UHGV virus genome: UHGV-0212259 | DNA: 44,951 nt | Strand: one strand, 5' to 3' | From: a virus | Part shown: piece after piece, positions 2,672-42,482 of the stretch | Position numbering within the stretch: position 1 is the stretch's first letter | Layout of the letters: each line of letters starts with the position of its first letter | Made by a program: the position numbers and the translations under genes | Notes under the pieces: generated by a model | Database searches by the model: none | What the model saw: the letters and a program-made list of their open reading frames with translations, nothing else | What the model was told of the DNA's origin: nothing

Positions 2672-2903
2672 GGGTAATCACCTCTGATTTCGTCTTGCCT
2701 TCGTTGTCAGCGGCTGCAGCCTTTGATTCGTCCTGCTGCTGCCGTTGTGTTTTCTTCGCTAACTCAGCCTGTGCCTTCTGCTGCTGCTGCGAAACGAGAT
2801 TCGCCCGGCCTTCGCTCCAGCCGCTGCGATACTGGTAGATGCCGTGTGCGTAAGCCAGGATGATGAAACATGCTCCCGCTACGACAGTTGCTTTAAGATT
2901 CAT
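2517..2903 (-). CDS. i-spanin (Rz-like inner-membrane spanin)
   Basis: N-terminal TM helix (VVAGACFIILAYAHGIY) followed by a Gln/Ala/Lys-rich coiled coil; overlaps the lipoprotein ORF in typical spanin architecture. Confidence 0.6.
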   Translation of the reverse strand: MNLKATVVAGACFIILAYAHGIYQYRSGWSEGRANLVSQQQQKAQAELAKKTQRQQQDESKAAAADNEGKTKSEVITREVVKYIKTPGRSVCTFDPERVQLKSRAVANANSIPGYDDDAAAVQTGATK

Positions 2904-3221
2904 GTTTCTCCTTTCTCGATAAGTAAAGCCCCGCCATAAAGCGGGGCGCTAGTCCTTATCATTTAAACATAGAAACGGCATAATCTCAGTAAACCAGTTA
3001 CTTTTTACACAAGCAATAGACTATGGCCCTTCCGAACGCGTCAGCGTAACTACACTCGGACTTAACGTCCGGCTCCGTTACCTGCCACGCCGCGGTCGCT
3101 TGTTCATACTTCACAAGCTCAGGTGGAGCTTAGCACATTTTTGGTGAAAAGTCAACTATTCGAATAGTTTATTCCAACATTTACAATTGAGTGGAATAAC
3201 CGGAATACATAAACAAATAGT

Positions 3222-3253
3222 TTGCGCACCCCAATATAATAGGGTACTATTCA
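3222..3253 (+). promoter_or_regulatory. Promoter with overlapping palindromic operator (type A: TTGCGC-N7-TATAAT overlapping TAATAGGGTACTATTCA)
   Basis: TATAAT at 3235..3240; 23-nt core CCAATATAATAGGGTACTATTCA identical to sites at 5375..5397 and 38826..38848; first ATG 25 nt downstream. Confidence 0.55.
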
Positions 3254-3277
3254 TTCTATCGAACCGGGGAGGCCGTC

Positions 3278-3379
3278 ATGTTAGTCGTTATTTCAGTAGT
3301 AATTGCAGTTGATGCGGTGATGTTTCTTTGGGCTTGTAGCGGTATTGGTGACATTGACACGGGTAATGGTGAACTATGA
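3278..3379 (+). CDS. Small hydrophobic peptide (33 aa), first gene of a plus-strand insert cassette
   Basis: GGGGAGG SD then ATG; MLVVISVVIAVDAVMFLWACSGIG...; stop overlaps next start (ATGA). Confidence 0.3.
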   Translation: MLVVISVVIAVDAVMFLWACSGIGDIDTGNGEL

Positions 3380-3720
3380 AATATATTAAATTAGCAGTAG
3401 CAGGTGTTGTAGCCGTTTGTTTGAGTGGTTGCGTAAGGTCGTTGCCAGACCCGGCTTTACAGGTTTATCAGGCAGGGGATACAACGGCAACATGTAATCA
3501 GTTACTATCGAGAATCGCCACGACAAAACAAGCTCAAGCCAACGCTACGCACCGTGTTAATAAGCAAATAGGTACTAACGTTGTACTCGGTGTTACAGGC
3601 GCATTCCTGATTGTTCCGCTGTTCTTTATGGACACGGGCGCCGGGCCTTCTATGGACGAGATGACAGCCGGTAATCGTCTGTCGCAGTTACAACAAACAT
3701 ACGACGAGAAATGCAAATGA
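3376..3720 (+). CDS. Lipoprotein with a C-proximal hydrophobic segment; candidate superinfection-exclusion / receptor-masking protein
   Basis: Signal peptide with lipobox LSGC (MKYIKLAVAGVVAVCLSGC); hydrophobic stretch NVVLGVTGAFLIVPLFF; opposite strand to flanking late genes; own promoter and terminator. Confidence 0.55.
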   Translation: MKYIKLAVAGVVAVCLSGCVRSLPDPALQVYQAGDTTATCNQLLSRIATTKQAQANATHRVNKQIGTNVVLGVTGAFLIVPLFFMDTGAGPSMDEMTAGNRLSQLQQTYDEKCK

Positions 3721-4277: not shown

Positions 4278-5321
4278 TTAATCCCCTTTCAGATAATCAG
4301 CAACACGTTTATCGAGTTCCGCCATCTGCTTAAGCGTGAGCGGATTCCCGAAACCATCTACAGATATTACGCGAAACTCTTCCGGCGATATACCGCTGTT
4401 ACGGAAAATCTTACCACGCACCGGGCCGAGCGCCTGGTCCTGAAACCACGCCGGTTGTTGTTTAAGGAACTCGTAGTAAGTGGTGTCTGCGCTTACCTGA
4501 GTGCCGCCGTCCGCGCCCTTAGCCGCACGTTTTGCGCCTTTATCCAGGAAGTCGAACTCGGAACTGATTACCGGGGCCGTGGTACTTCTGCATCCACAAT
4601 GGGCGGGGGGCATCGGCCCTTTACCGATTTCCCACGTCATCCCATCTCTGGCCTTGCAAACGGCTGAGGTCCTAGAATCAAGAGTAGACACCCACTCATA
4701 TTTCTCGATGATGTCGTCGTTCTGACGGTACGTCTCGTTGCGTGCTTCGTTGGACACGTGAGACAGCGCGGTGCGGATTACGGTAGCGGCGTTACGTTCA
4801 GAGATGTCCGCCAGCCCACCAGCGCCTACGACGTTCTTAACAATCTGCCGTGTGGTTTGGCCCTGTACGAAACCCATCTTAACGCCGGTGACCAGGCGCG
4901 CGACTTCGGTTTCGCCCCATCCAGACATCAGTTTAGTGAAATCAACAGGCTTGTCACTTAGCGATAAGGGCTGAAACTCGGCAGCGGCCCACACCTGTTC
5001 CGCGGTAGGTGTAACAAATTCCGCGTTAACGTTGGTGGTCAGTGCCTTTACGTTCCACTCCGCCTCATACGCCGCCAGTTCCTTAAGGTCTTCTGTCAGC
5101 TTTGTTTGCCAGTCACCTGTAAGCCCTGTCAGTGCTTCTTCGAGGTCGCGTAACAGTTTATTCAGTCGCGCAGTGCTTCGCCCGTCGTCGCCGAATAACA
5201 GCACCTGCCGTTTGATTTCGTCCCGCATCTCCTTAATAAACGGTGCGAGGTCTTTCACTTCACCGGATGCGGCGCGTTGTAGCCATATCTGGTGGCTGAT
5301 TAGGGATGTAAGTAAGCTCAT
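4278..5321 (-). CDS. Head morphogenesis / minor head protein
   Basis: About 347 aa directly downstream of portal on the same strand; start placed at ATG 5321 with AGGAGGG SD (track ORF extends to 5378); family assignment by position only. Confidence 0.5.
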   Translation of the reverse strand: MSLLTSLISHQIWLQRAASGEVKDLAPFIKEMRDEIKRQVLLFGDDGRSTARLNKLLRDLEEALTGLTGDWQTKLTEDLKELAAYEAEWNVKALTTNVNAEFVTPTAEQVWAAAEFQPLSLSDKPVDFTKLMSGWGETEVARLVTGVKMGFVQGQTTRQIVKNVVGAGGLADISERNAATVIRTALSHVSNEARNETYRQNDDIIEKYEWVSTLDSRTSAVCKARDGMTWEIGKGPMPPAHCGCRSTTAPVISSEFDFLDKGAKRAAKGADGGTQVSADTTYYEFLKQQPAWFQDQALGPVRGKIFRNSGISPEEFRVISVDGFGNPLTLKQMAELDKRVADYLKGD

Positions 5322-5365: not shown

Positions 5366-5397
5366 TTGCAGACACCAATATAATAGGGTACTATTCA
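5366..5397 (+). promoter_or_regulatory. Promoter with overlapping operator (type A), second copy
   Basis: TTGCAG-N7-TATAAT (5379..5384) overlapping TAATAGGGTACTATTCA; identical 23-nt core to 3231..3253. Confidence 0.55.
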
Positions 5398-5429
5398 TTA
5401 CATCAAAACGAGAGATAAGGAATTTAGAA

Positions 5430-5711
5430 ATGGCTAAATATTCAAACAGTAATTTACATATGACATGTGTGCATGTTGATGGTGTTCAAGTAGAGTGCGT
5501 CGCCTGTTGCAGGCCTTCATGCGAAGAAGGCATATTTAAAATAGGGCGCAAGTATTGGCTGCACCACGGGTGGTTGACGCGACCTAATGGGGATGCCGAT
5601 GTAGAACTTTGGTGGGTAGAGTATCATGGTCGCTCATATATCTGTTGGCCCGAAACGAAAAACGGCACCACCCGATACACCTCTTCCAGCAATGGATTCA
5701 TATTTGTATAA
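5430..5711 (+). CDS. Cys/Trp-rich small protein (93 aa), hypothetical; single-gene plus-strand insert
   Basis: ATG with AAGGAA SD; CVHVDGVQVECVACCRPSCEEG motif; flanked by own promoter and bidirectional terminator between head morphogenesis and portal genes. Confidence 0.45.
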   Translation: MAKYSNSNLHMTCVHVDGVQVECVACCRPSCEEGIFKIGRKYWLHHGWLTRPNGDADVELWWVEYHGRSYICWPETKNGTTRYTSSSNGFIFV

Positions 5712-5713
5712 AG

Positions 5714-5746
5714 AAAAGATAAGGCCCCTTAAGGGGCCTTTCTATT
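5714..5746. terminator. Bidirectional rho-independent terminator
   Basis: Hairpin AGGCCCC-tta-GGGGCCT at 5722..5738 with flanking A/T runs; between convergent Cys-rich gene and portal gene. Confidence 0.55.
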
Positions 5747-7215
5747 TACTCCTGTTGTTGCGCCGACTGCGGAATCTCTCCAGCCACCTGAGTAACAGCA
5801 CCCAACGGCAGAGGTGCGTCCTCAATAGCGTTCTGAATGTCCTCGTCCGTCCAGTCAGTTACACCTGCCTTGCGCAACGCAGCATAATAAGCGGTAGCCG
5901 GTAACAGACCCGCGTTAATATCCGCCATCCACTGAGCACGGTCCTGAGCGGTCATCGGTTGCAGGAAGAACTCCATGTTCAGTTTGAACTCAATCTCTGT
6001 GCCTTCGCGCAGCCCAAGCATCGCTGCCACCCAGCGCAACGCATCGGTGTACGCCATGCTTACGTTACGTGCGATTGTAGCCATAACGGACGTATCAGCG
6101 CCGCGTTGTAGACGGGCGGATTCAGCGGTTATTTGCTGCGTCGGCGTGATAAGCTGCGCGCCAATCTGAATGGCCTGATTCTCTTTATCCAGCATGTTTT
6201 GTTTGGCGAGGTTGTTCTCTCCTGCCTGAACCAGAAACGCATTACCGCCGTAACCAATGTTATGGCCTGAACGCGACCCCATGCGAACGCCGTGCGGGTT
6301 AGCCTCTTTCCACTGTTCCATGCTCATATTCTCACCAGGGGCGATGAACAGAGTGGGCTGGCCCACAACGAAACTGGACTCCTCATTGTCTGCGCTGTTG
6401 CGGAAATGCCCGATATTAAGCTCGGCCAACGGCAGCAAAGGCGCATCGTCGATGGTTGCATCGTTGTTGCTTGCACCAATAAACGTGAACGGGATTTTGC
6501 CGCGCAACTGTTCGCCAAGTTCCGGGAATATTTCGATTACGTCACCATGAGCGCCACCTTCTGCATCGAAGCGGTAAATGCGCTGGCGGTAGCGACCATC
6601 AATCAAATCGAGAACGCGGTATTGCTCACCGAATTTTGTTTCGAACTCTGCCCCAGGTTCCGAGTATTCCCATACCTCCCGTAACACGACCATTGTCACA
6701 CGGTTAACCGAACCGACGCGAGTCAATCGCCAGTTGATGATGTTCTCAGCGGTGTAGAATGCGATGACCGGGTTTAATAATCCCGCGTTCTGTTCTGCTG
6801 CCGTTGCCGCAGCTGTCTCCGGGGCGTCCACCAGCAACCCGCCACGGCCAACCGAGTCAATCTCCATTAGCGTATCCTGCGCGTGCTGCCACAGCCCGAC
6901 ACCAGAACCGTCCGCATTGCGTAACAGGTACTCAAGTTCAGGCGGGATAATCTGCTCAGGGTCTTTGCGCATAACACTGCCAACCATCCCCGCCAGTGTA
7001 CGTTTAGTGAAGTTGTAGCAGATAGCGCCGTTCTCGTATTCTTCCTGGCGCTGTGCTGCGTATGTCGGGTCTGGTTCGTTCTTCCCGACGTTGCGAAGAT
7101 AGCGAATAAGGTCGCCTTCCAGCGCGTGGCGTACCTTCTGCCATTTATCGAAGTGATGCAGCCATTCCCGGTGTTTTGTCTTAACACCCTGATTCTGACC
7201 GTTCATAGTTAACAT
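5746..7215 (-). CDS. Portal protein
   Basis: 489 aa immediately downstream of terminase large subunit; canonical position and size; no motif-level proof. Confidence 0.75.
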   Translation of the reverse strand: MLTMNGQNQGVKTKHREWLHHFDKWQKVRHALEGDLIRYLRNVGKNEPDPTYAAQRQEEYENGAICYNFTKRTLAGMVGSVMRKDPEQIIPPELEYLLRNADGSGVGLWQHAQDTLMEIDSVGRGGLLVDAPETAAATAAEQNAGLLNPVIAFYTAENIINWRLTRVGSVNRVTMVVLREVWEYSEPGAEFETKFGEQYRVLDLIDGRYRQRIYRFDAEGGAHGDVIEIFPELGEQLRGKIPFTFIGASNNDATIDDAPLLPLAELNIGHFRNSADNEESSFVVGQPTLFIAPGENMSMEQWKEANPHGVRMGSRSGHNIGYGGNAFLVQAGENNLAKQNMLDKENQAIQIGAQLITPTQQITAESARLQRGADTSVMATIARNVSMAYTDALRWVAAMLGLREGTEIEFKLNMEFFLQPMTAQDRAQWMADINAGLLPATAYYAALRKAGVTDWTDEDIQNAIEDAPLPLGAVTQVAGEIPQSAQQQE

Positions 7216-11167: not shown

Positions 11168-11196
11168 AATATAATAGGGTCGAAGGTAATAGTCAA
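11168..11196 (-). promoter_or_regulatory. Sigma70-like promoter (TTGACT-17-TATATT) with operator palindrome overlapping the -35
   Basis: Minus-strand TTGACT (11196..11191), 17-nt spacer, TATATT (11173..11168); operator TGAATAGTTGACTATTA spans the -35. Confidence 0.5.
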
Positions 11197-14440: not shown

Positions 14441-14472
14441 TGAATAGTAGTCTATTCTATCTCAGTGTGCAA
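14441..14472 (-). promoter_or_regulatory. Promoter with overlapping operator (type A, minus strand)
   Basis: Minus-strand TTGCAC-N7-TAGAAT followed by AGACTACTATTCA; palindrome TGAATAGTAGTCTATTC at 14441..14457; about 30 nt upstream of ATG 14412. Confidence 0.5.
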
Positions 14473-15786: not shown

Positions 15787-16005
15787 TTATTTAAAGTAGA
15801 TAGCGAATTTCTTGTAACCCGCAGGCTCATTACGAAGCCCCTTACCGATAGCGAAACGTTGTACGTTAATAAAATCATTTTCATCCATTCCGTCGGTGTC
15901 GAACGTAAAGAAGTTGCGCTTGTTCCCGATAATTACGCGCTCTGAAATATCGATGCCGTAAACTTCTCTTATTGCGGAAACCACGCTTGCGGTCGCTTTG
16001 TTCAT
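15787..16005 (-). CDS. Hypothetical protein, first gene of the minus-strand early operon
   Basis: 72 aa ORF about 35 nt downstream of the predicted transcription start of the promoter at 16037..16068. Confidence 0.35.
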   Translation of the reverse strand: MNKATASVVSAIREVYGIDISERVIIGNKRNFFTFDTDGMDENDFINVQRFAIGKGLRNEPAGYKKFAIYFK

Positions 16006-16036: not shown

Positions 16037-16068
16037 TGAATAGTAACCTATTATGTTGGGGTGTGCAA
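16037..16068 (-). promoter_or_regulatory. Promoter with overlapping operator (type A, minus strand)
   Basis: Minus-strand TTGCAC-ACCCCAA-CATAAT-AGGTTACTATTCA, near-identical to the plus-strand 23-nt core. Confidence 0.5.
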
Positions 16069-22732: not shown

Positions 22733-22757
22733 TAAGGCCCTTCATTGGGCCTTTTTA
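22733..22757 (+). terminator. Rho-independent terminator after SSB-like gene
   Basis: Hairpin AAGGCCC-ttcattg-GGCCTT followed by TTTTT. Confidence 0.55.
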
Positions 22758-22768
22758 CCGGAGTCAGA

Positions 22769-23242
22769 ATGGAACATATAAAAGATTTTCTAAGCTACGA
22801 CCGAGAGACAGGGGTATTCACGTGGGTACAGCCTACTTACCGTCGAGGGCGACCGGGAGACATCGCGGGGTGCATCAATAGTAGTGGATACTGGCGAATT
22901 CCGTACATGGGTCGATATTACATGGCGCACAGGCTAGCGTGGTTTTTCGAGTATGGTGAATGGCCCGAAGGCCCTCTTGACCATATAAACCGTGACAGGT
23001 TAGACAATAGGATTTCTAACCTAAGGAAAGCAACAACCGCTGATAATGTGCGAAACGCTAAAAATAAGGGAGCTAGAACAGGAGTTAAGGGAGTAGTTAA
23101 AAACGGCAACCGATTTTACGGGCGTGTGCATTTTAACTACAAAAGCTATAACGCCGGTAGCTACGGAACTCTTGAAGAAGCAGAAAGCGCTGTAAAGAAA
23201 TTAAGAGAAAAACTGCACAAGGAATTTTATTGCCATGACTAG
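22769..23242 (+). CDS. HNH homing endonuclease with AP2-like domain (copy 1)
   Basis: HRLAW...DHINRDRLDNRISNLR HNH core; paralogous to 26331..26828; free-standing, overlaps DNA polymerase start. Confidence 0.65.
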   Translation: MEHIKDFLSYDRETGVFTWVQPTYRRGRPGDIAGCINSSGYWRIPYMGRYYMAHRLAWFFEYGEWPEGPLDHINRDRLDNRISNLRKATTADNVRNAKNKGARTGVKGVVKNGNRFYGRVHFNYKSYNAGSYGTLEEAESAVKKLREKLHKEFYCHD

Positions 23243-26142: not shown

Positions 26143-26334
26143 ATGAAACACGAATATGACCGCAAACCAGCACGTGACATCGTACCTGGCGACATGATTT
26201 TCAACGTTAAGACCCGCCAGCCTGTTGCCGTTGATACGGTGTACGTCGAGTCGAACGGTAAACTGGTTATCGAAGACGTAACCGGTAACGTTACGGCGTT
26301 CGGGCGTAAAGAGTTAGTTCTGGTGGCGAAATGA
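26143..26334 (+). CDS. Hypothetical protein
   Basis: 63 aa ORF with AAGGAA SD. Confidence 0.4.
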   Translation: MKHEYDRKPARDIVPGDMIFNVKTRQPVAVDTVYVESNGKLVIEDVTGNVTAFGRKELVLVAK

Positions 26335-26828
26335 ACAAATTAACAAGAAGGCCTGATATTGAGGAGGCGAAACGTCTTCTTAACTATGACCCCGAAACAG
26401 GTATATTTACACGAAAAGTAAGCATTAAAGGGAGAAATGCGGGGGAGGTAGCCGGAGGGCCAAACGACAAAGGATACATAGTTATTACAGTCTCCGGTGT
26501 AAGAATAAAAGCCCACCATCTGGCATGGGCTTTCGTCTACGGAGAATATCATAACGGTGAGCTTGACCATAAAGACCGTAACAGGGCTAATAACGCCATA
26601 AATAATATAAGGCCAGCAGCCAGGAGCCAGCAGATTCAGAACCGAGACTGCTCATCACATAACACTAGCGGCGCGATAGGGGTTTACCAAATATCCTCTG
26701 GCAGGTGGCGCGCCAGAATAGGCGTCAATAACAAATACATCCACCTTGGCTATTTTGATACTATAGAAGAAGCGTCGCGCGTATACCAAAGAGCCGCGGA
26801 AATATACTTCGGGGAGTTCAAGGCATGA
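26331..26828 (+). CDS. HNH homing endonuclease with AP2-like domain (copy 2)
   Basis: YDPETGIFT...HHLAW...DHKDRNRANNAINNIR; paralog of 22769..23242; inserted between VRR-NUC region and SNF2 helicase. Confidence 0.65.
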   Translation: MNKLTRRPDIEEAKRLLNYDPETGIFTRKVSIKGRNAGEVAGGPNDKGYIVITVSGVRIKAHHLAWAFVYGEYHNGELDHKDRNRANNAINNIRPAARSQQIQNRDCSSHNTSGAIGVYQISSGRWRARIGVNNKYIHLGYFDTIEEASRVYQRAAEIYFGEFKA

Positions 26829-38292: not shown

Positions 38293-38709
38293 CTACTTTT
38301 CCTGCAATTGGTGTAGCTGTTCATTGTGGAAAACAACAACGTGTTCAGCGAGGCGTTTATATTGTGAGAAAAGGGTATTCAGGTTCTCTTTATTAAATTC
38401 ATCGTCGAGACTCCAACCGTTAACTAGTTCAAGTGCTAACTGGCGGTTAAGGTCCGTCGCGGCGTCTTCCATCTTAATATTGTATTCCGAGAAATCTTTC
38501 AGTTCCTCGCATTTATCACGAAGCGGTTTCAATTTACCTAATGCCGCGCGGTACGCAAGTGTAAACGCCCTCATAGCTTTAACAGCAACGTCTGCCTCCG
38601 GTGAAACAACGTTAAGCCACTCCCCTGAATCGGTGCCGTCTTTCAGTGGGATCGGCATACGGGCGCCTTTTTCCGCCTCAGCTTCGTAATAAAAATCGGA
38701 AAGTTTCAT
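38293..38709 (-). CDS. Tail assembly chaperone (G-like)
   Basis: 138 aa acidic protein immediately upstream of tape measure gene; ends QLQEK at the putative slippery site. Confidence 0.55.
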   Translation of the reverse strand: MKLSDFYYEAEAEKGARMPIPLKDGTDSGEWLNVVSPEADVAVKAMRAFTLAYRAALGKLKPLRDKCEELKDFSEYNIKMEDAATDLNRQLALELVNGWSLDDEFNKENLNTLFSQYKRLAEHVVVFHNEQLHQLQEK

Positions 38710-38816
38710 TCTTTAATCCTTTGGTTAAGAGGTTACTGGTTAAGGTGAATGCGCCAGGCGGGAACCACCCGCTTTTCGTGTGCGACACTAGGCGCAAACT
38801 TATTCTAGCACACTAC

Positions 38817-38848
38817 TTGCAGGCCCCAATATAATAGGGTACTATTCA
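38817..38848 (+). promoter_or_regulatory. Promoter with overlapping operator (type A), third identical copy
   Basis: TTGCAG-GCCCCAA-TATAAT (38830..38835) overlapping TAATAGGGTACTATTCA. Confidence 0.55.
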
Positions 38849-38875: not shown

Positions 38876-39067
38876 ATGTCAAGTTTACCAGTTTCCTTAA
38901 TTCTGTTTGCACTGCTCGTCTATTTCGCACCTTTCCTGGTTGCGTACTTCCGTAACCATAAAGCGAAGTTAGCGATATTCATGGCTAATCTGTTTCTTGG
39001 CTGGGTTCTTCTACCGTGGGTATTTATTTTAATCTGGGCTTGCAACTCGAACGTTAAAGAGAAGTGA
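38876..39067 (+). CDS. Small membrane protein (2 TM)
   Basis: 63 aa; two hydrophobic helices (LILFALLVYFAPFLVAYF, LFLGWVLLPWVFILIWA). Confidence 0.45.
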   Translation: MSSLPVSLILFALLVYFAPFLVAYFRNHKAKLAIFMANLFLGWVLLPWVFILIWACNSNVKEK

Positions 39068-39105
39068 GCTAGTATAGGACAAATCCTAAACACGAGGAAG
39101 TAAGC

Positions 39106-40236
39106 ATGGCCCGGAAGAAAATAACCGACGAACAGTTACAGGAAGAATTGAACGCCGGTATGAAGAATATCGACATCGCCCGTAAATACGGCATCTCAGA
39201 CCGCGTTATTCGCATCCGTAAAGCGAAGCTGGCTAAGAAAGGCGTAGGCCACGGGCGGGACGTTAGCCACCTTGTGCCAGATGGCTACAAGATTAAAGGA
39301 ACATCGTCACTTGTGGACGAGTTAGGCAACACTAAACTGCAATGGGTTAAGACCGACACCGATGCGGAACGTCAGGTCGAGTTAATGAAGGCCGTAATCG
39401 AGGGCATGAAGTCGGAGATTACCCCCGTTGCTCCTGTTAAAGCCGTTCGCACCAAACGAGACGACAAGCTACTCAACCTTTACACTGTGTCTGATTTCCA
39501 TCTCGGTATGCTGGCCTGGGCCGACGAGAGTGGCGACGACTGGGATATGAAGATTGCAGAAGACCTGTTCTCCCGTTGGTTCGATGCGGCATTCCAGAAA
39601 GCACCGGATGCGGGGACTGGGGTTATTAACCTGCTGGGCGACTTCGCGCACTTCGATAGTCTGGTTGCCGTTACACCTGCAAGCGGTCACGCCCTTGACG
39701 CCGACACCCGTTACCAGAAACTTGTCCGCTACATGATTCGCATGGTCCGCCGTGTTGTCGATATGGCGCGGGTTAAGCATAAAAATGTTCGCTTGCTTAT
39801 CGTGCAAGGGAATCACGACGAAAGTGGCATGATTTGGTTGGCTGAGATGTTCAGTACGCTGTATGACAATGAGCCTCGTGTGCTCGTCGATACGTCACCG
39901 GATGTTTACAAGATGGTGCAACACGGCAAAACGACGCTGTTCTTCCATCACGGGCATAAAGCACGATTCGACGCTATTGAACCGGTTATGATTGCCAAGT
40001 TCCGTAAAGCGTTCGGCGAGAGTGTTTACAGCTACGCCCACGTAGGCCATCTGCACCACCAGAAGATTGTAGAAAGCCGTAACATGATTGTTGAGCAACA
40101 CCGCACCTTAGCGGCTAAAGACGCCTACGCCTCTCGCGGCGGATGGATGTCAGGTCGTAGTGCAAATGTAATTACTTATAGCGCCGAATATGGCGAGGTC
40201 GCACGTTTAACTATTTCACCGGAGATGCTGGGATGA
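39106..40236 (+). CDS. Calcineurin-like metallophosphoesterase with N-terminal HTH-like domain
   Basis: 376 aa; ordered motifs DFH, GDFAHFD, GNHDE, HHGH, GHLHH; N-terminal NIDIARKYGISDRVIRIRKAKL resembles an HTH. Confidence 0.65.
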   Translation: MARKKITDEQLQEELNAGMKNIDIARKYGISDRVIRIRKAKLAKKGVGHGRDVSHLVPDGYKIKGTSSLVDELGNTKLQWVKTDTDAERQVELMKAVIEGMKSEITPVAPVKAVRTKRDDKLLNLYTVSDFHLGMLAWADESGDDWDMKIAEDLFSRWFDAAFQKAPDAGTGVINLLGDFAHFDSLVAVTPASGHALDADTRYQKLVRYMIRMVRRVVDMARVKHKNVRLLIVQGNHDESGMIWLAEMFSTLYDNEPRVLVDTSPDVYKMVQHGKTTLFFHHGHKARFDAIEPVMIAKFRKAFGESVYSYAHVGHLHHQKIVESRNMIVEQHRTLAAKDAYASRGGWMSGRSANVITYSAEYGEVARLTISPEMLG

Positions 40237-40718
40237 AAGATATTGTGATTTTCGATTTAGACGGGACATTGGCGGATGGTACTCATCGTTTACACCTGCT
40301 GCCGAAAGATAACTACAACGAAACATGGGCGTGGAAACCCTTTAACATGGCGTGCAAAGATGATGCGCCGATTAAAGATAACATCGAACTATGTAACGCC
40401 CTTAATCGTCGCTATGCCGTTATCATTTTAACCGGCCGCAGTGATGACGCAGAAAAAGAAACCAGAATGTGGTTGCAGCGCCACCGCGTCGAATTTTACC
40501 AGTTAATCATGCGCAGCAAACACGACAACAGAAAAGACATCGTAATTAAAGAAGAGGTGTTACGTGCTATCGGGCTGGAAAGAATATTGTGCGCATTCGA
40601 CGACTCTCCCGCGGTAATAAAGCATTTCCGCAGCCTCGGCTTAACCACCCACGCGGTTACCGAATACGACTGTAACGGTGGCTCTGCACACTTAAAATCA
40701 CACGGGAGCGATAAGTAA
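40233..40718 (+). CDS. HAD-superfamily phosphatase (polynucleotide 3'-phosphatase / nucleotidase-like)
   Basis: 161 aa; motif I FDLDGTL at residues 7-13, motif II ILTGR, conserved Lys in NRKDIVIKEE, motif IV CAFDD; resembles phosphatase domain of T4 polynucleotide kinase (from memory). Confidence 0.6.
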   Translation: MKDIVIFDLDGTLADGTHRLHLLPKDNYNETWAWKPFNMACKDDAPIKDNIELCNALNRRYAVIILTGRSDDAEKETRMWLQRHRVEFYQLIMRSKHDNRKDIVIKEEVLRAIGLERILCAFDDSPAVIKHFRSLGLTTHAVTEYDCNGGSAHLKSHGSDK

Positions 40719-41272
40719 TGGCTAAGGTAATTATTCTTAATGGTCCGGCGGGTTGCGGGAAAGACACACTTGCTATGGCGCTGGTAGAAATGGGCTTTGC
40801 GAAAGGAACTACCAGTTTCAAGAATCCAATGTTCGATATTGCTTTGGCAGCGTTAGGCCCGGATGCTTACCGCGAATTTCTCGACGGCTACGACGACCGG
40901 GCACGGAAAGAAAAGCCAGAGGGTTTTCTTAATGGGTTGTCCCGTCGTCAGTTCATGATTGCCGTTTCTGAGCAATTCATTAAACCGGTATTCGGTGATG
41001 ATTATTTCGGTAAGTATCTTGCTGAAAACTTGCCAGACGGCAACGAAGTTTTTGTAGTGTCCGACGGTGGATTCGCCAGTGAAGTTGCCCCTATCGTCGC
41101 CGCGGGGCATGACGTGCGAATCGTTCGCCTCCATCGTGACGGCTATACATTTGAGGGGGACAGCCGTGGTTATCTGTATGGCGTTGATGGTGTAAAAGAT
41201 TACGATACCTACATCATACCAGGTGATGTTAAATCGAACGTTATAGACATTGCTTTAAAATTAGGTTTGTAA
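40718..41272 (+). CDS. P-loop nucleotide kinase, dNMP kinase-like
   Basis: 184 aa; Walker A GPAGCGKDT at residues 9-17; overall pattern resembles T4 gene 1 dNMP kinase (from memory). Confidence 0.55.
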   Translation: MAKVIILNGPAGCGKDTLAMALVEMGFAKGTTSFKNPMFDIALAALGPDAYREFLDGYDDRARKEKPEGFLNGLSRRQFMIAVSEQFIKPVFGDDYFGKYLAENLPDGNEVFVVSDGGFASEVAPIVAAGHDVRIVRLHRDGYTFEGDSRGYLYGVDGVKDYDTYIIPGDVKSNVIDIALKLGL

Positions 41273-41302
41273 GAAAAAGGCCCCTAACGGGGCCTTAGTT
41301 TT
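41272..41302. terminator. Bidirectional rho-independent terminator
   Basis: A-run, hairpin AGGCCCC-taac-GGGGCCT (41278..41295), T-rich tail; between kinase cassette and major tail gene. Confidence 0.6.
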
Positions 41303-42482
41303 ATGCGTAACTAATACGTTGAATTACGATAGACGACTGATACTGGTTGCCGGTAGCCTGGCCTTCAATGGACTGAGTGATTGACTCGGGTCCGCCAATC
41401 TCTGGTGTGACCGCCGTAAGCTCTGCGCGTTTTAAACTGAAAGACATAGCCCCGTTTACCCCCGCCAGAATAGAGTTAATCTCTACCTGCTGCTCGTTGA
41501 TAAACTTCTGAATCATCGCCATGTCGTACAGCTTGCCGGAGATGGAGAAGGTGTTAGCTGCGCGACCACGTTCCACGAACGCAACGCTACTGTTGCCGAG
41601 TTCAAACTGAGCAGATGCGCCGTTGTCGTTGGTGATGGTCAGAGTATCGCAACGCAACGGCGTAGAACCGTCGAACACGGACACATCTACAGAAGAGAAC
41701 GGCTCGTCACCAAACGTAACAGAGGAGAAATTAGAACCGGTCGGCGGCGTAGTGAGAATCTCCTGACTGCGACCGATGAATGGGAAGCTGCCAGTTACCA
41801 TCGCGTTAACAGCCTGTTCGATGGTAAAACCAGAAACTTCCACGCCTTTGGTTAACGTGTACGCGTCAGTACCGCCGCACTGGCCTTTGTACCAGGTAAG
41901 GATAGAGAACGTCTTACACGTCTTACACGTGTTACCGGTTTCCAGCGTGTCGCCGGTTTTAGCCTTACTAGTTTTTGTCTCGGTGGTCAGGGTGTGTTGG
42001 ATGCCCGCACCAGTAACAACCTTAGCCTTTACTGCAGTAACAATAAATGGTTTTGCGTTATCGCCTGTTAAATCGGTAAATGCAATCAGGTCGCCTACCC
42101 CAACTCCGTCAGCGATAAAACTGCCGGTAGCGCGTGTGAACGTCTTGCCCGCGGGTGCGACGGTAATCGACAGACTGGACAGGGAAACACCGGATTGCCA
42201 CGTAGAGCCTAAAGCACCAGCTAGCCAGTCATCCTGGCTTTTCGAGCTAAGCTCGATCGCGTATTCACCGCTAACCTGTTTGTTACCGGTGCGGATGGAT
42301 GTAGTTTCACGGCTGCCGTCCAGTTCGTTGGAAGTCAGCGCATCGCGGGTTACGGCAGGAACGCCACCAGTGTTACGCAACGGAGACCAGACCGGGTTAC
42401 TTGGTGTTACGCCCGGGGTCACTTCTGCCACATAGAATTGCGCGGTATTCGCGCCCTTAAAAGGAGTTGTAGCCATATTCAC
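41301..42482 (-). CDS. Major tail (tube) protein
   Basis: 393 aa immediately upstream (in transcription order) of G/T chaperones and tape measure, interrupted only by the plus-strand cassette. Confidence 0.6.
   Translation of the reverse strand: MNMATTPFKGANTAQFYVAEVTPGVTPSNPVWSPLRNTGGVPAVTRDALTSNELDGSRETTSIRTGNKQVSGEYAIELSSKSQDDWLAGALGSTWQSGVSLSSLSITVAPAGKTFTRATGSFIADGVGVGDLIAFTDLTGDNAKPFIVTAVKAKVVTGAGIQHTLTTETKTSKAKTGDTLETGNTCKTCKTFSILTWYKGQCGGTDAYTLTKGVEVSGFTIEQAVNAMVTGSFPFIGRSQEILTTPPTGSNFSSVTFGDEPFSSVDVSVFDGSTPLRCDTLTITNDNGASAQFELGNSSVAFVERGRAANTFSISGKLYDMAMIQKFINEQQVEINSILAGVNGAMSFSLKRAELTAVTPEIGGPESITQSIEGQATGNQYQSSIVIQRISYA

Follow-up and report, generated by a model that had tools for sequence, protein, structure and literature searches.

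A putative single-gene moron cassette between the head-morphogenesis and portal genes of a Kagunavirus genome

The moron concept, reportedly put forward by Hendrix and colleagues, is said to describe an extra gene that has its own promoter and terminator and lies between genes that are adjacent in relatives. In T4-type phages, non-essential genes are shuffled as modules by promoter-early stem-loop (PeSL) cassettes (PMC2839356, PMC4122927). The Bas11 protein Gp54 (Escherichia phage, MZ501085; PDB 9AXB; PF25180, 'Phage antiviral trigger protein Gp54') is the second direct activator of CapRel-SJ46, a defence protein that joins toxin and antitoxin in one chain, and close homologs of Gp54 fail to trigger CapRel (PMC11578894). 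No other protein with the fold of Gp54 has a solved structure. Here, we describe a gene for a 93-amino-acid (aa) protein at 5430..5711 on the plus strand of the virus genome UHGV-0212259, a stretch of 44,951 nucleotides that is referred to as the window, and we compare its locus with these systems. A sequence-only reading of this DNA had noted a single-gene insert between the head-morphogenesis and portal genes. This first observation was confirmed, and the first interpretation given to it was partly supported.

The open reading frame (ORF) of the 93-aa protein starts with ATG and is antisense to both flanking late genes, which match Phage_Mu_F (head morphogenesis) and DUF4055 (portal). The true start of the head-morphogenesis gene is the ATG at 5321, and the length of its relatives, 347–348 aa, agrees with this. 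Between positions 5300 and 5800 the window is 100% identical to Escherichia phage M01 (L001, OR061069), and the same region is 97–99.8% identical to two further Guernseyvirinae/Kagunavirus phages. In the GenBank record of phage M01 the portal, major capsid and terminase genes are each broken into two coding sequences (CDS); unlike in this split annotation, the portal ORF of the window is whole and encodes 489 aa. An overlapping ORF on the plus strand, 5626..5904, extends across the terminator and enters the portal gene; it was therefore treated as spurious. The phage appears to be virulent. The 93-aa product carries CVHVDGVQVECVACCRPSCEEG at residues 13–34, has a mass of 10.8 kDa and an isoelectric point of 6.9, and is devoid of a signal peptide or transmembrane segment. 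It contains six Cys and five Trp residues, and every Trp lies within residues 43–73.

Inspection of relatives showed that the position between the two late genes is a slot with exchangeable content. In phage Bas75 the slot is empty, the head-morphogenesis and portal genes being adjacent across a junction of 36 base pairs (bp), and at least eight other Kagunaviruses among the records listed have the same 2,558-bp span as Bas75. The slot holds a 94-aa ORF in EF2-1, a 173-aa ORF in phage 26, three ORFs in SXAU_B4 and, in Salmonella relatives, a 217-aa ORF with a different promoter ahead. In the Escherichia phages, the left boundary of the slot was always the same promoter core and the right boundary always a guanine-cytosine (GC) hairpin against the portal stop codon, and the core stands in this slot ahead of different cargo in L009, L010 and L012. 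Five distinct slot contents were found in this way between a common left flank (the core) and a common right flank (the hairpin and the portal stop). Furthermore, the 93-aa gene differs from its surroundings in base composition, with a GC content of 45.4% versus 54.2–54.4% in the flanks and a third-position GC content (GC3) of 45% versus 59–61%, and most Kagunaviruses, the head genes of which are conserved in other respects, lack it. Together, a promoter-like element and a terminator of its own (both predicted), flanks that are adjacent in relatives and an atypical base composition mark the 93-aa gene, as judged from its sequence, as a moron, i.e., an optional, horizontally mobile single-gene transcription unit in a Kagunavirus recombination hotspot. 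The sequence-only reading had held that loss of the gene from close relatives that keep the promoter would speak against its proposal. Precisely this was seen, yet it is normal for the swappable cargo of a moron and does not tell against the gene, on which purifying selection acts in every case where it occurs. As a separate observation, slot cargos are misnamed in other records, for instance as 'Efflux RND transporter permease subunit' or 'DNA polymerase III'.

The right end of the cassette is formed by the hairpin AAGGCCCCTTAAGGGGCCTT, which is followed by a T-rich run on either strand. Folding gave −17.4 kcal/mol (z −2.9) for the plus strand and −18.2 kcal/mol (z −2.4) for the minus strand, in line with the bidirectional terminator that had been proposed for this position. 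The structure directly abuts the portal stop codon (5746–5748, minus strand), and the other cargos in this slot end in the same type of hairpin. The empty junction of Bas75 (L007; 1056–1091) also bears a GC hairpin, AGCCCCTTTCGGGGCT. Since a hairpin is present even there, a stem-loop between these late genes is ancestral, and it may have been a landing site for recombination.

The left end of the cassette carries a 23-nucleotide (nt) core, CCAATATAATAGGGTACTATTCA, which is identical at 3231–3253, 5375–5397 and 38826–38848, each time on the plus strand. One core ahead of three insertions had indeed been proposed. The three identical copies were found as described, but three is not their total, as a fourth copy (16037–16059) and a fifth, looser copy near 14443 (minus strand) exist. 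Inside the promoter-like element of the 93-aa gene, the palindrome AATAG-GGTA-CTATT is located at 5382–5395. The leader between this element and the ATG is nearly matched ahead of a 72-aa gene at 16005 (minus strand) and, in L012 and L014, ahead of a 61-aa cargo that is unrelated. The gene at 15787..16005 (minus strand) is the first of a leftward operon, the small products of which belong to no known family. Ten copies of the palindrome AATAG-N4-CTATT are present across the window, where 0.04 would be expected. Five sites, which we refer to as class A (3238, 5382 and 38833 on the plus strand; 16039 and 14443 on the minus strand), have the layout TTGC(G/A)(C/G), 17 or 18 nt, TACTAT, with a gene with a good ribosome-binding site about 26–35 nt downstream. 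Three class B sites (19526, 22011 and 26091) have a −35 box TTGACA or TTGACG, the palindrome in the spacer and a −10 box TATAGT or TATATT. They lie inside the module with an AAA_25 helicase, a PD-(D/E)XK nuclease, SSB, DNA polymerase A, a SNF2 helicase and a Toprim protein. At the palindromes at 11188 and 14826 the promoter context is not clear; a partial core (AAATATAATAGGGT) lies about 20 nt upstream of the former, which may be a decayed cassette. We also observed a promoter-like site of opposite direction (TTGATG-18-TATATT, from 5406 to 5377 on the minus strand) that overlaps the core and faces the head-morphogenesis gene. Transcription of the late strand could begin anew from this site downstream of the bidirectional terminator; the −35 box of the site is unconserved in the other core copies.

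Because the core also heads the leftward small-gene operon and its palindrome also lies in three strong promoters of the replication module, the core looks like a general non-late promoter family of the phage that is not confined to accessory genes. With respect to the co-regulated accessory regulon of the sequence-only reading, the core does head several accessory units, but it is not a signal private to them. Conservation of the palindrome across ten promoters suggests a common regulator or operator. As the promoter architecture is common to non-late units, it supports, without proving, expression of the 93-aa gene antisense to the late head operon, probably in the early or middle rather than the late phase. 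A literature search on Kagunavirus or Guernseyvirinae promoters and their timing returned nothing usable.

Supporting the idea of a mobile cargo, the 93-aa gene was found in two different cassettes. In the window, L004 and L013 it occupies the slot described above (slot 2). In two relatives, the 43.6-kb contig L014 and phage EP-B-K_E2 (L015), it lies, with the same leader, in slot 1, a cassette upstream of a Hoc-like gene. Slot 1 of the window instead holds a 32-aa peptide and a lipoprotein, and the head-morphogenesis/portal slot of L014 holds three different small ORFs. A scan of IMG/VR detected the exact core at 47 loci. Taken together with the loci already collected, 61 core occurrences preceded at least 18 unrelated first-ORF families, most often an Imm-like membrane protein (15 occurrences), a 173-aa protein (8) or a 109-aa protein with a signal peptide (7). 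Between close relatives, the repeated promoter and the stem-loop mark the boundaries of indels and replacements, which is the hallmark of PeSL-type shuffling. A version of the gene also occurs in an unrelated genus, as tblastn revealed copies with 37–41% identity in 19 of 29 records of Wifcevirus, myophages of about 68 kb, where the gene sits in an array of small non-structural genes and a promoter-like site is found within the 78-bp gap upstream of it. In RCIP0363 and ECML-117, which lack the gene, DNA homology to Mansfield ends a few bases beyond the ATG (L002 2986), at query position 2991. This break just past the ATG indicates that cargo is exchanged right after the promoter and leader in Wifceviruses, too. 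In vB_Eco4M-7 (P0012), the start of the 120-aa annotation is probably set too far upstream, within the promoter region.

Selection on the protein was assessed with five Kagunavirus alleles (window, L004, L013, L014, L015), of which only sufficiently diverged pairs were scored. The pairwise ratio of nonsynonymous to synonymous substitution rates (dN/dS) was 0.16–0.32, and residues 35–75 were the most constrained part of the protein, with a ratio of nonsynonymous to synonymous differences (pN/pS) of 0.14. This showed that the 93-aa ORF is a real gene with purifying selection on its product. Positive selection on the variable loop was considered and not supported: pN was 0.21, and pN/pS stayed at 0.34 because synonymous change was high there as well. 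A search of 5.8 billion proteins gave five clusters of close homologs; the Wifcevirus homologs form nine further ones. An exhaustive search with hidden Markov models against 1.84 billion representatives recovered only two true clusters and one fragment, and no other genuine relatives. The family alignment has little depth (15 sequences, two clades) and shows the conserved signature F-K-x-G..Y.L.HG.L....N...D.E.WW.EY.G....C...G..Y.....G..F. Scans of the 93-aa protein and its homologs with Pfam, PHROGs, NCBIfam and PADLOC gave no match, as expected from the earlier statement that the product has no recognisable family. We regard it as a new small family.

We next turn to the predicted structure. 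The AlphaFold2 model of the 93-aa protein (predicted local distance difference test score, pLDDT, 83; predicted template modelling score, pTM, 0.71) matched one solved protein only, Gp54 (9AXB). In the window model the strands comprise residues 13–26, 41–49, 58–65, 68–77, 80–85 and 90–92, with a loop at 27–40; in the Gp54 model they comprise residues 4–11, 26–30, 35–38, 41–47, 52–55 and 58–65, with a loop at 12–25. Both thus have six strands and a β1–β2 loop of 14 residues. In addition, GIFK(I/K)G occupies loop positions 8–13 in both proteins, and the F, K and G of this motif are invariant or nearly so in the window family as well as in the Gp54 family. The AlphaFold weights are older than 9AXB, and no templates were used. 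When the two families were compared with hhalign, only 10 columns were aligned around F-K-x-G, at a probability of 0.2%. A second candidate motif in common with Gp54, a YH.G turn, was dropped since its placement was ambiguous. We consider a Gp54-like fold to be rather more probable than improbable. Of the follow-ups that the sequence-only reading had recommended, remote homology searches linked the protein to no known family and structure prediction gave the Gp54-like model. Sequence, profile and Foldseek support being absent, the 93-aa protein was filed as having a Gp54-like predicted fold only, and it is not counted as a member of PF25180.

In our leading model, which we consider to be evenly poised between right and wrong, the cassette is a mobile moron, the early and dispensable product of which is a Gp54-type β-barrel that binds a host protein. 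According to this model, host sigma-70 RNA polymerase would start at about position 5401 from TTGCAG-N17-TACTAT, and the transcript, antisense to the late head operon, would end at the hairpin at 5721–5740. Cargo would move when the repeated promoter/leader and terminator sequences undergo homologous recombination, as described for PeSL cassettes. Less certainly, the product would be a soluble, cytoplasmic, six-stranded β-barrel of the rare Gp54(Bas11) type, in which the β1–β2 loop is long and partly variable, with the conserved F-K-x-G. It would probably bind a host protein via this loop and the barrel, for counter-defence or for the takeover of a host function, and a host immune protein, such as a CapRel-like sensor, could in turn detect it, as is the case for Gp54. 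A much bolder extension, which we regard as improbable, is that the Gp54-type barrels of several unrelated coliphage groups (Drexlerviridae, Kagunavirus, Wifcevirus) make up one superfamily of divergent sequence, the members of which are mobile, early and dispensable. Via their long β1–β2 loop, such proteins would bind host immune domains of a zinc-finger-like or similar kind and act as counter-defence factors that are detected by some sensors like CapRel, and the Kagunavirus cassettes would spread their genes in a PeSL-like manner.

Several results weigh against the Gp54-type moron model. With regard to the promoter, the −35 box TTGCAG is weak, and because it matches the consensus at only 3 of 6 positions, a simple sigma-70 scanner did not call TTGCAG-17-TACTAT. 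With regard to the protein, the fold claim comes from one program, one predicted model and the shallow 15-sequence alignment. BLASTP of the 93-aa protein versus Gp54 gave no match, and neither the window protein nor three family members matched PF25180 (no Pfam match at E≤10), the gathering score of which is 27 bits and in which Gp54 itself scores 116 bits. The hhalign probability for the two families was ≤0.2% under local, global and secondary-structure-weighted settings. Foldseek did not place 9AXB among the best 50 matches in the PDB, where the top E-value was 0.36, and found nothing at E<0.1 in BFVD. No PADLOC or other defence-related match was obtained for the 93-aa protein, and a relationship with Gp54, even if true, yields no mechanism.

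The same data bear on the strongest alternative, according to which the gene encodes a genuine accessory protein and the likeness to Gp54 is a coincidence of modelling or of fold space. The protein would then be an orphan β protein, serving for instance in host takeover or superinfection exclusion. The results with hhalign, BLASTP and Pfam, the failure of Foldseek to recover 9AXB and the shallowness of the alignment behind the model are all in keeping with this explanation. Moreover, cassettes with the same promoter encode membrane or periplasmic proteins of the exclusion type (Imm_superinfect, lipoprotein). However, a coincidence would have to account for the agreement in six-strand layout, loop length and position of F-K-x-G, obtained with AlphaFold weights that predate 9AXB and without templates. 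Altogether, we regard a coincidental likeness as a possibility to be taken seriously, yet as rather unlikely.

The position of the gene between head-morphogenesis and portal genes might suggest a virion protein or an accessory protein of head assembly. We consider this very unlikely, since the gene runs on the other strand under a promoter and a terminator of its own, is missing from most Kagunaviruses despite their conserved head genes, occupies a different slot in L014 and L015, and has its Wifcevirus counterpart in an array of small non-structural genes. A further proposal started from the motif CVACCRPSC: four Cys (C23, C26, C27 and C31) fall in a nine-residue stretch of the window allele, and the sequence-only reading had recommended a metal-binding analysis; the product would then be a metal-binding, zinc-ribbon-like small regulator. 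Across the 15-sequence alignment, however, C72 was the only invariant Cys and C23 was nearly invariant, whereas C26, C27 and C31 are replaced even between homologs that are 76–98% identical (e.g., CVAQEWTSS and CVARCGHSG) and are missing from the Wifcevirus branch. In that alignment, no four-ligand Cys/His set conserved across the family was found. The Cys segment lies in the most variable loop, the one with a pN of 0.21, and no zinc-finger family was matched. A metal site is therefore unlikely, and the small-regulator explanation as a whole is highly improbable.

It could also be argued that the ORF is incidental and that the cassette is purely regulatory, acting by antisense transcription or as a terminator that insulates the late operon. 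The bidirectional hairpin would break read-through from the portal to the head-morphogenesis gene, and the reverse promoter-like site aims at the latter. Nevertheless, this idea has hardly any plausibility in view of the purifying selection on the protein and of the retention of a 37–41% identical protein in an unrelated genus without common DNA context; besides, the hairpin exists already in the empty slot of Bas75. Finally, a carbohydrate-binding, lectin-like single β-propeller blade (PLL/tectonin or FG-GAP), suggested by profile matches to multi-repeat proteins and the PLL3 lectin through F..G....L.H.W.T.PN, can practically be dismissed, and the FG-GAP/PLL repeat proteins and P0015 were rejected as homologs, because individual repeats were insignificant (i-Evalue 16 or worse), the scores are sums over 4–27 weak repeats of the targets, the best match, P0015, is a junk-like perfect repeat, and the 93-aa protein has one copy of the motif only.

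The coordinates of the cassette and of related features in the window are collected in Table 1. The third identical core heads a unit that had been labelled a kinase cassette. This label did not hold, as the unit comprises four genes, closed by a hairpin at 41275–41306, and it looks like an exclusion gene combined with an RNA- or nucleotide-repair set. The core's near neighbour on the other side is an Rfam int-alpA RNA motif (RF02996) at 38734–38798 on the minus strand, with 36.4 bits against a gathering score of 35.8, in the leader of the minus-strand gene 38293..38709. For the 114-aa lipoprotein of slot 1 no Pfam or PADLOC family was found, and the two genes of slot 1 may be a superinfection-exclusion pair. 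A non-coding stretch of about 320 bp (2904–3230), with a hairpin at about 2925–2950, lies upstream of slot 1 and is conserved in L014; an Rfam scan of 2850–3300 found nothing credible. Within the replication module, two genes for HNH endonucleases (22745–23242 and 26331–26828, plus strand), the second of which also has an AP2 domain, stand downstream of class B promoters 22011 and 26091. These genes are likely mobile and of the homing type.

Table 1. Positions of the 93-aa gene cassette, its flanks and features with related sequences in the window
Feature	Position	Strand	Description
Class A promoter-like element	5366..5394	+	TTGCAG 5366-5371, 17-nt spacer, TACTAT 5389-5394
5′ leader of the 93-aa gene	5398..5429	+	Shine-Dalgarno sequence AAGGA 5417-5421, 8 nt before the ATG
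CDS of the 93-aa protein	5430..5711	+	N-terminal helix, then six-stranded β structure (predicted)
Bidirectional intrinsic-terminator-like hairpin with tails	5721..5750	both	Hairpin 5721-5740, T-rich tails
Head-morphogenesis gene (left flank)	4278..5321	-	Phage_Mu_F match
Portal gene (right flank)	5746..7215	-	DUF4055 match
Sister core, slot 1	3231..3253	+	Heads 32-aa hydrophobic peptide and 114-aa lipoprotein
Slot 1 cargo	3279-3720	+	114-aa lipoprotein (lipobox LSGC), its start overlapped by a 32-aa hydrophobic peptide
Fourth core copy, two mismatches	16037..16059	-	Heads leftward operon starting at 16005
Sister core, third copy	38826..38848	+	Heads four-gene unit closed by hairpin 41275-41306
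Four-gene unit ('kinase cassette')	38876-41272	+	63-aa Imm_superinfect membrane protein, 376-aa metallophosphoesterase-like protein, HAD/PNKP phosphatase, P-loop protein
Palindrome sites	3238, 5382, 11188, 14443, 14826, 16039, 19526, 22011, 26091, 38833		AATAG-N4-CTATT

Returning to the Gp54-type moron model, a true fold match would mean that a second, sequence-unrelated family, carried in swappable cassettes by two further phage groups, gives independent handles on the role of such proteins, and it would show whether CapRel-like sensors recognise a fold class or a single protein. The 93-aa protein itself is a modestly interesting candidate for the arms race between phage and host. With one core, at least 18 cargo families and one gene in two slots, the cassettes are a compact case of repeat-mediated shuffling outside the T4-type phages. 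They also yield a set of candidates for anti-defence or exclusion genes of Kagunaviruses, phages that are used in phage-therapy work.

When the product is compared with Gp54 of Bas11, both are small, soluble, dispensable phage proteins with a promoter-like sequence of their own (apparent in the case of Gp54), and both the Wifcevirus homolog and gene 54 of Bas11 lie within arrays of small genes. Both share the six-stranded β-barrel, predicted in the case of the 93-aa protein, and the 14-residue β1–β2 loop with F-K-x-G at the same place. The window protein differs from Gp54 in length (93 aa versus 66 aa); it has an additional N-terminal helix, and its β2–β3 hairpin is longer. Its family occurs in Kagunavirus and Wifcevirus, whereas Gp54 occurs in Drexlerviridae, and the two have no detectable sequence or profile similarity, nor does Foldseek give confirmation.

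At the level of the cassette, the locus resembles the morons of lambdoid and other tailed phages in its own promoter-like element and terminator, in flanks that are adjacent in Bas75, in its atypical composition and in being optional. It differs from classical morons in that the phage is apparently virulent, which leaves no place for expression from the prophage state, the classical moron setting, and in that its promoter is repeated throughout the phage rather than private. With PeSL cassettes it shares the repeated sigma-70-like promoter and the stem-loop terminator around small non-essential ORFs, the indel and replacement boundaries at the repeats and the presence of the same cargo at different cassette copies. 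Unlike in PeSL cassettes, promoter and terminator lie here at opposite ends of the cargo instead of forming one composite unit, the host genome is that of a small siphovirus with 3–5 copies rather than dozens, and the units lie antisense within late operons rather than in hyperplastic early regions. The architecture is accordingly of a well-known kind, a moron with PeSL-like shuffling, and not a categorically new system.

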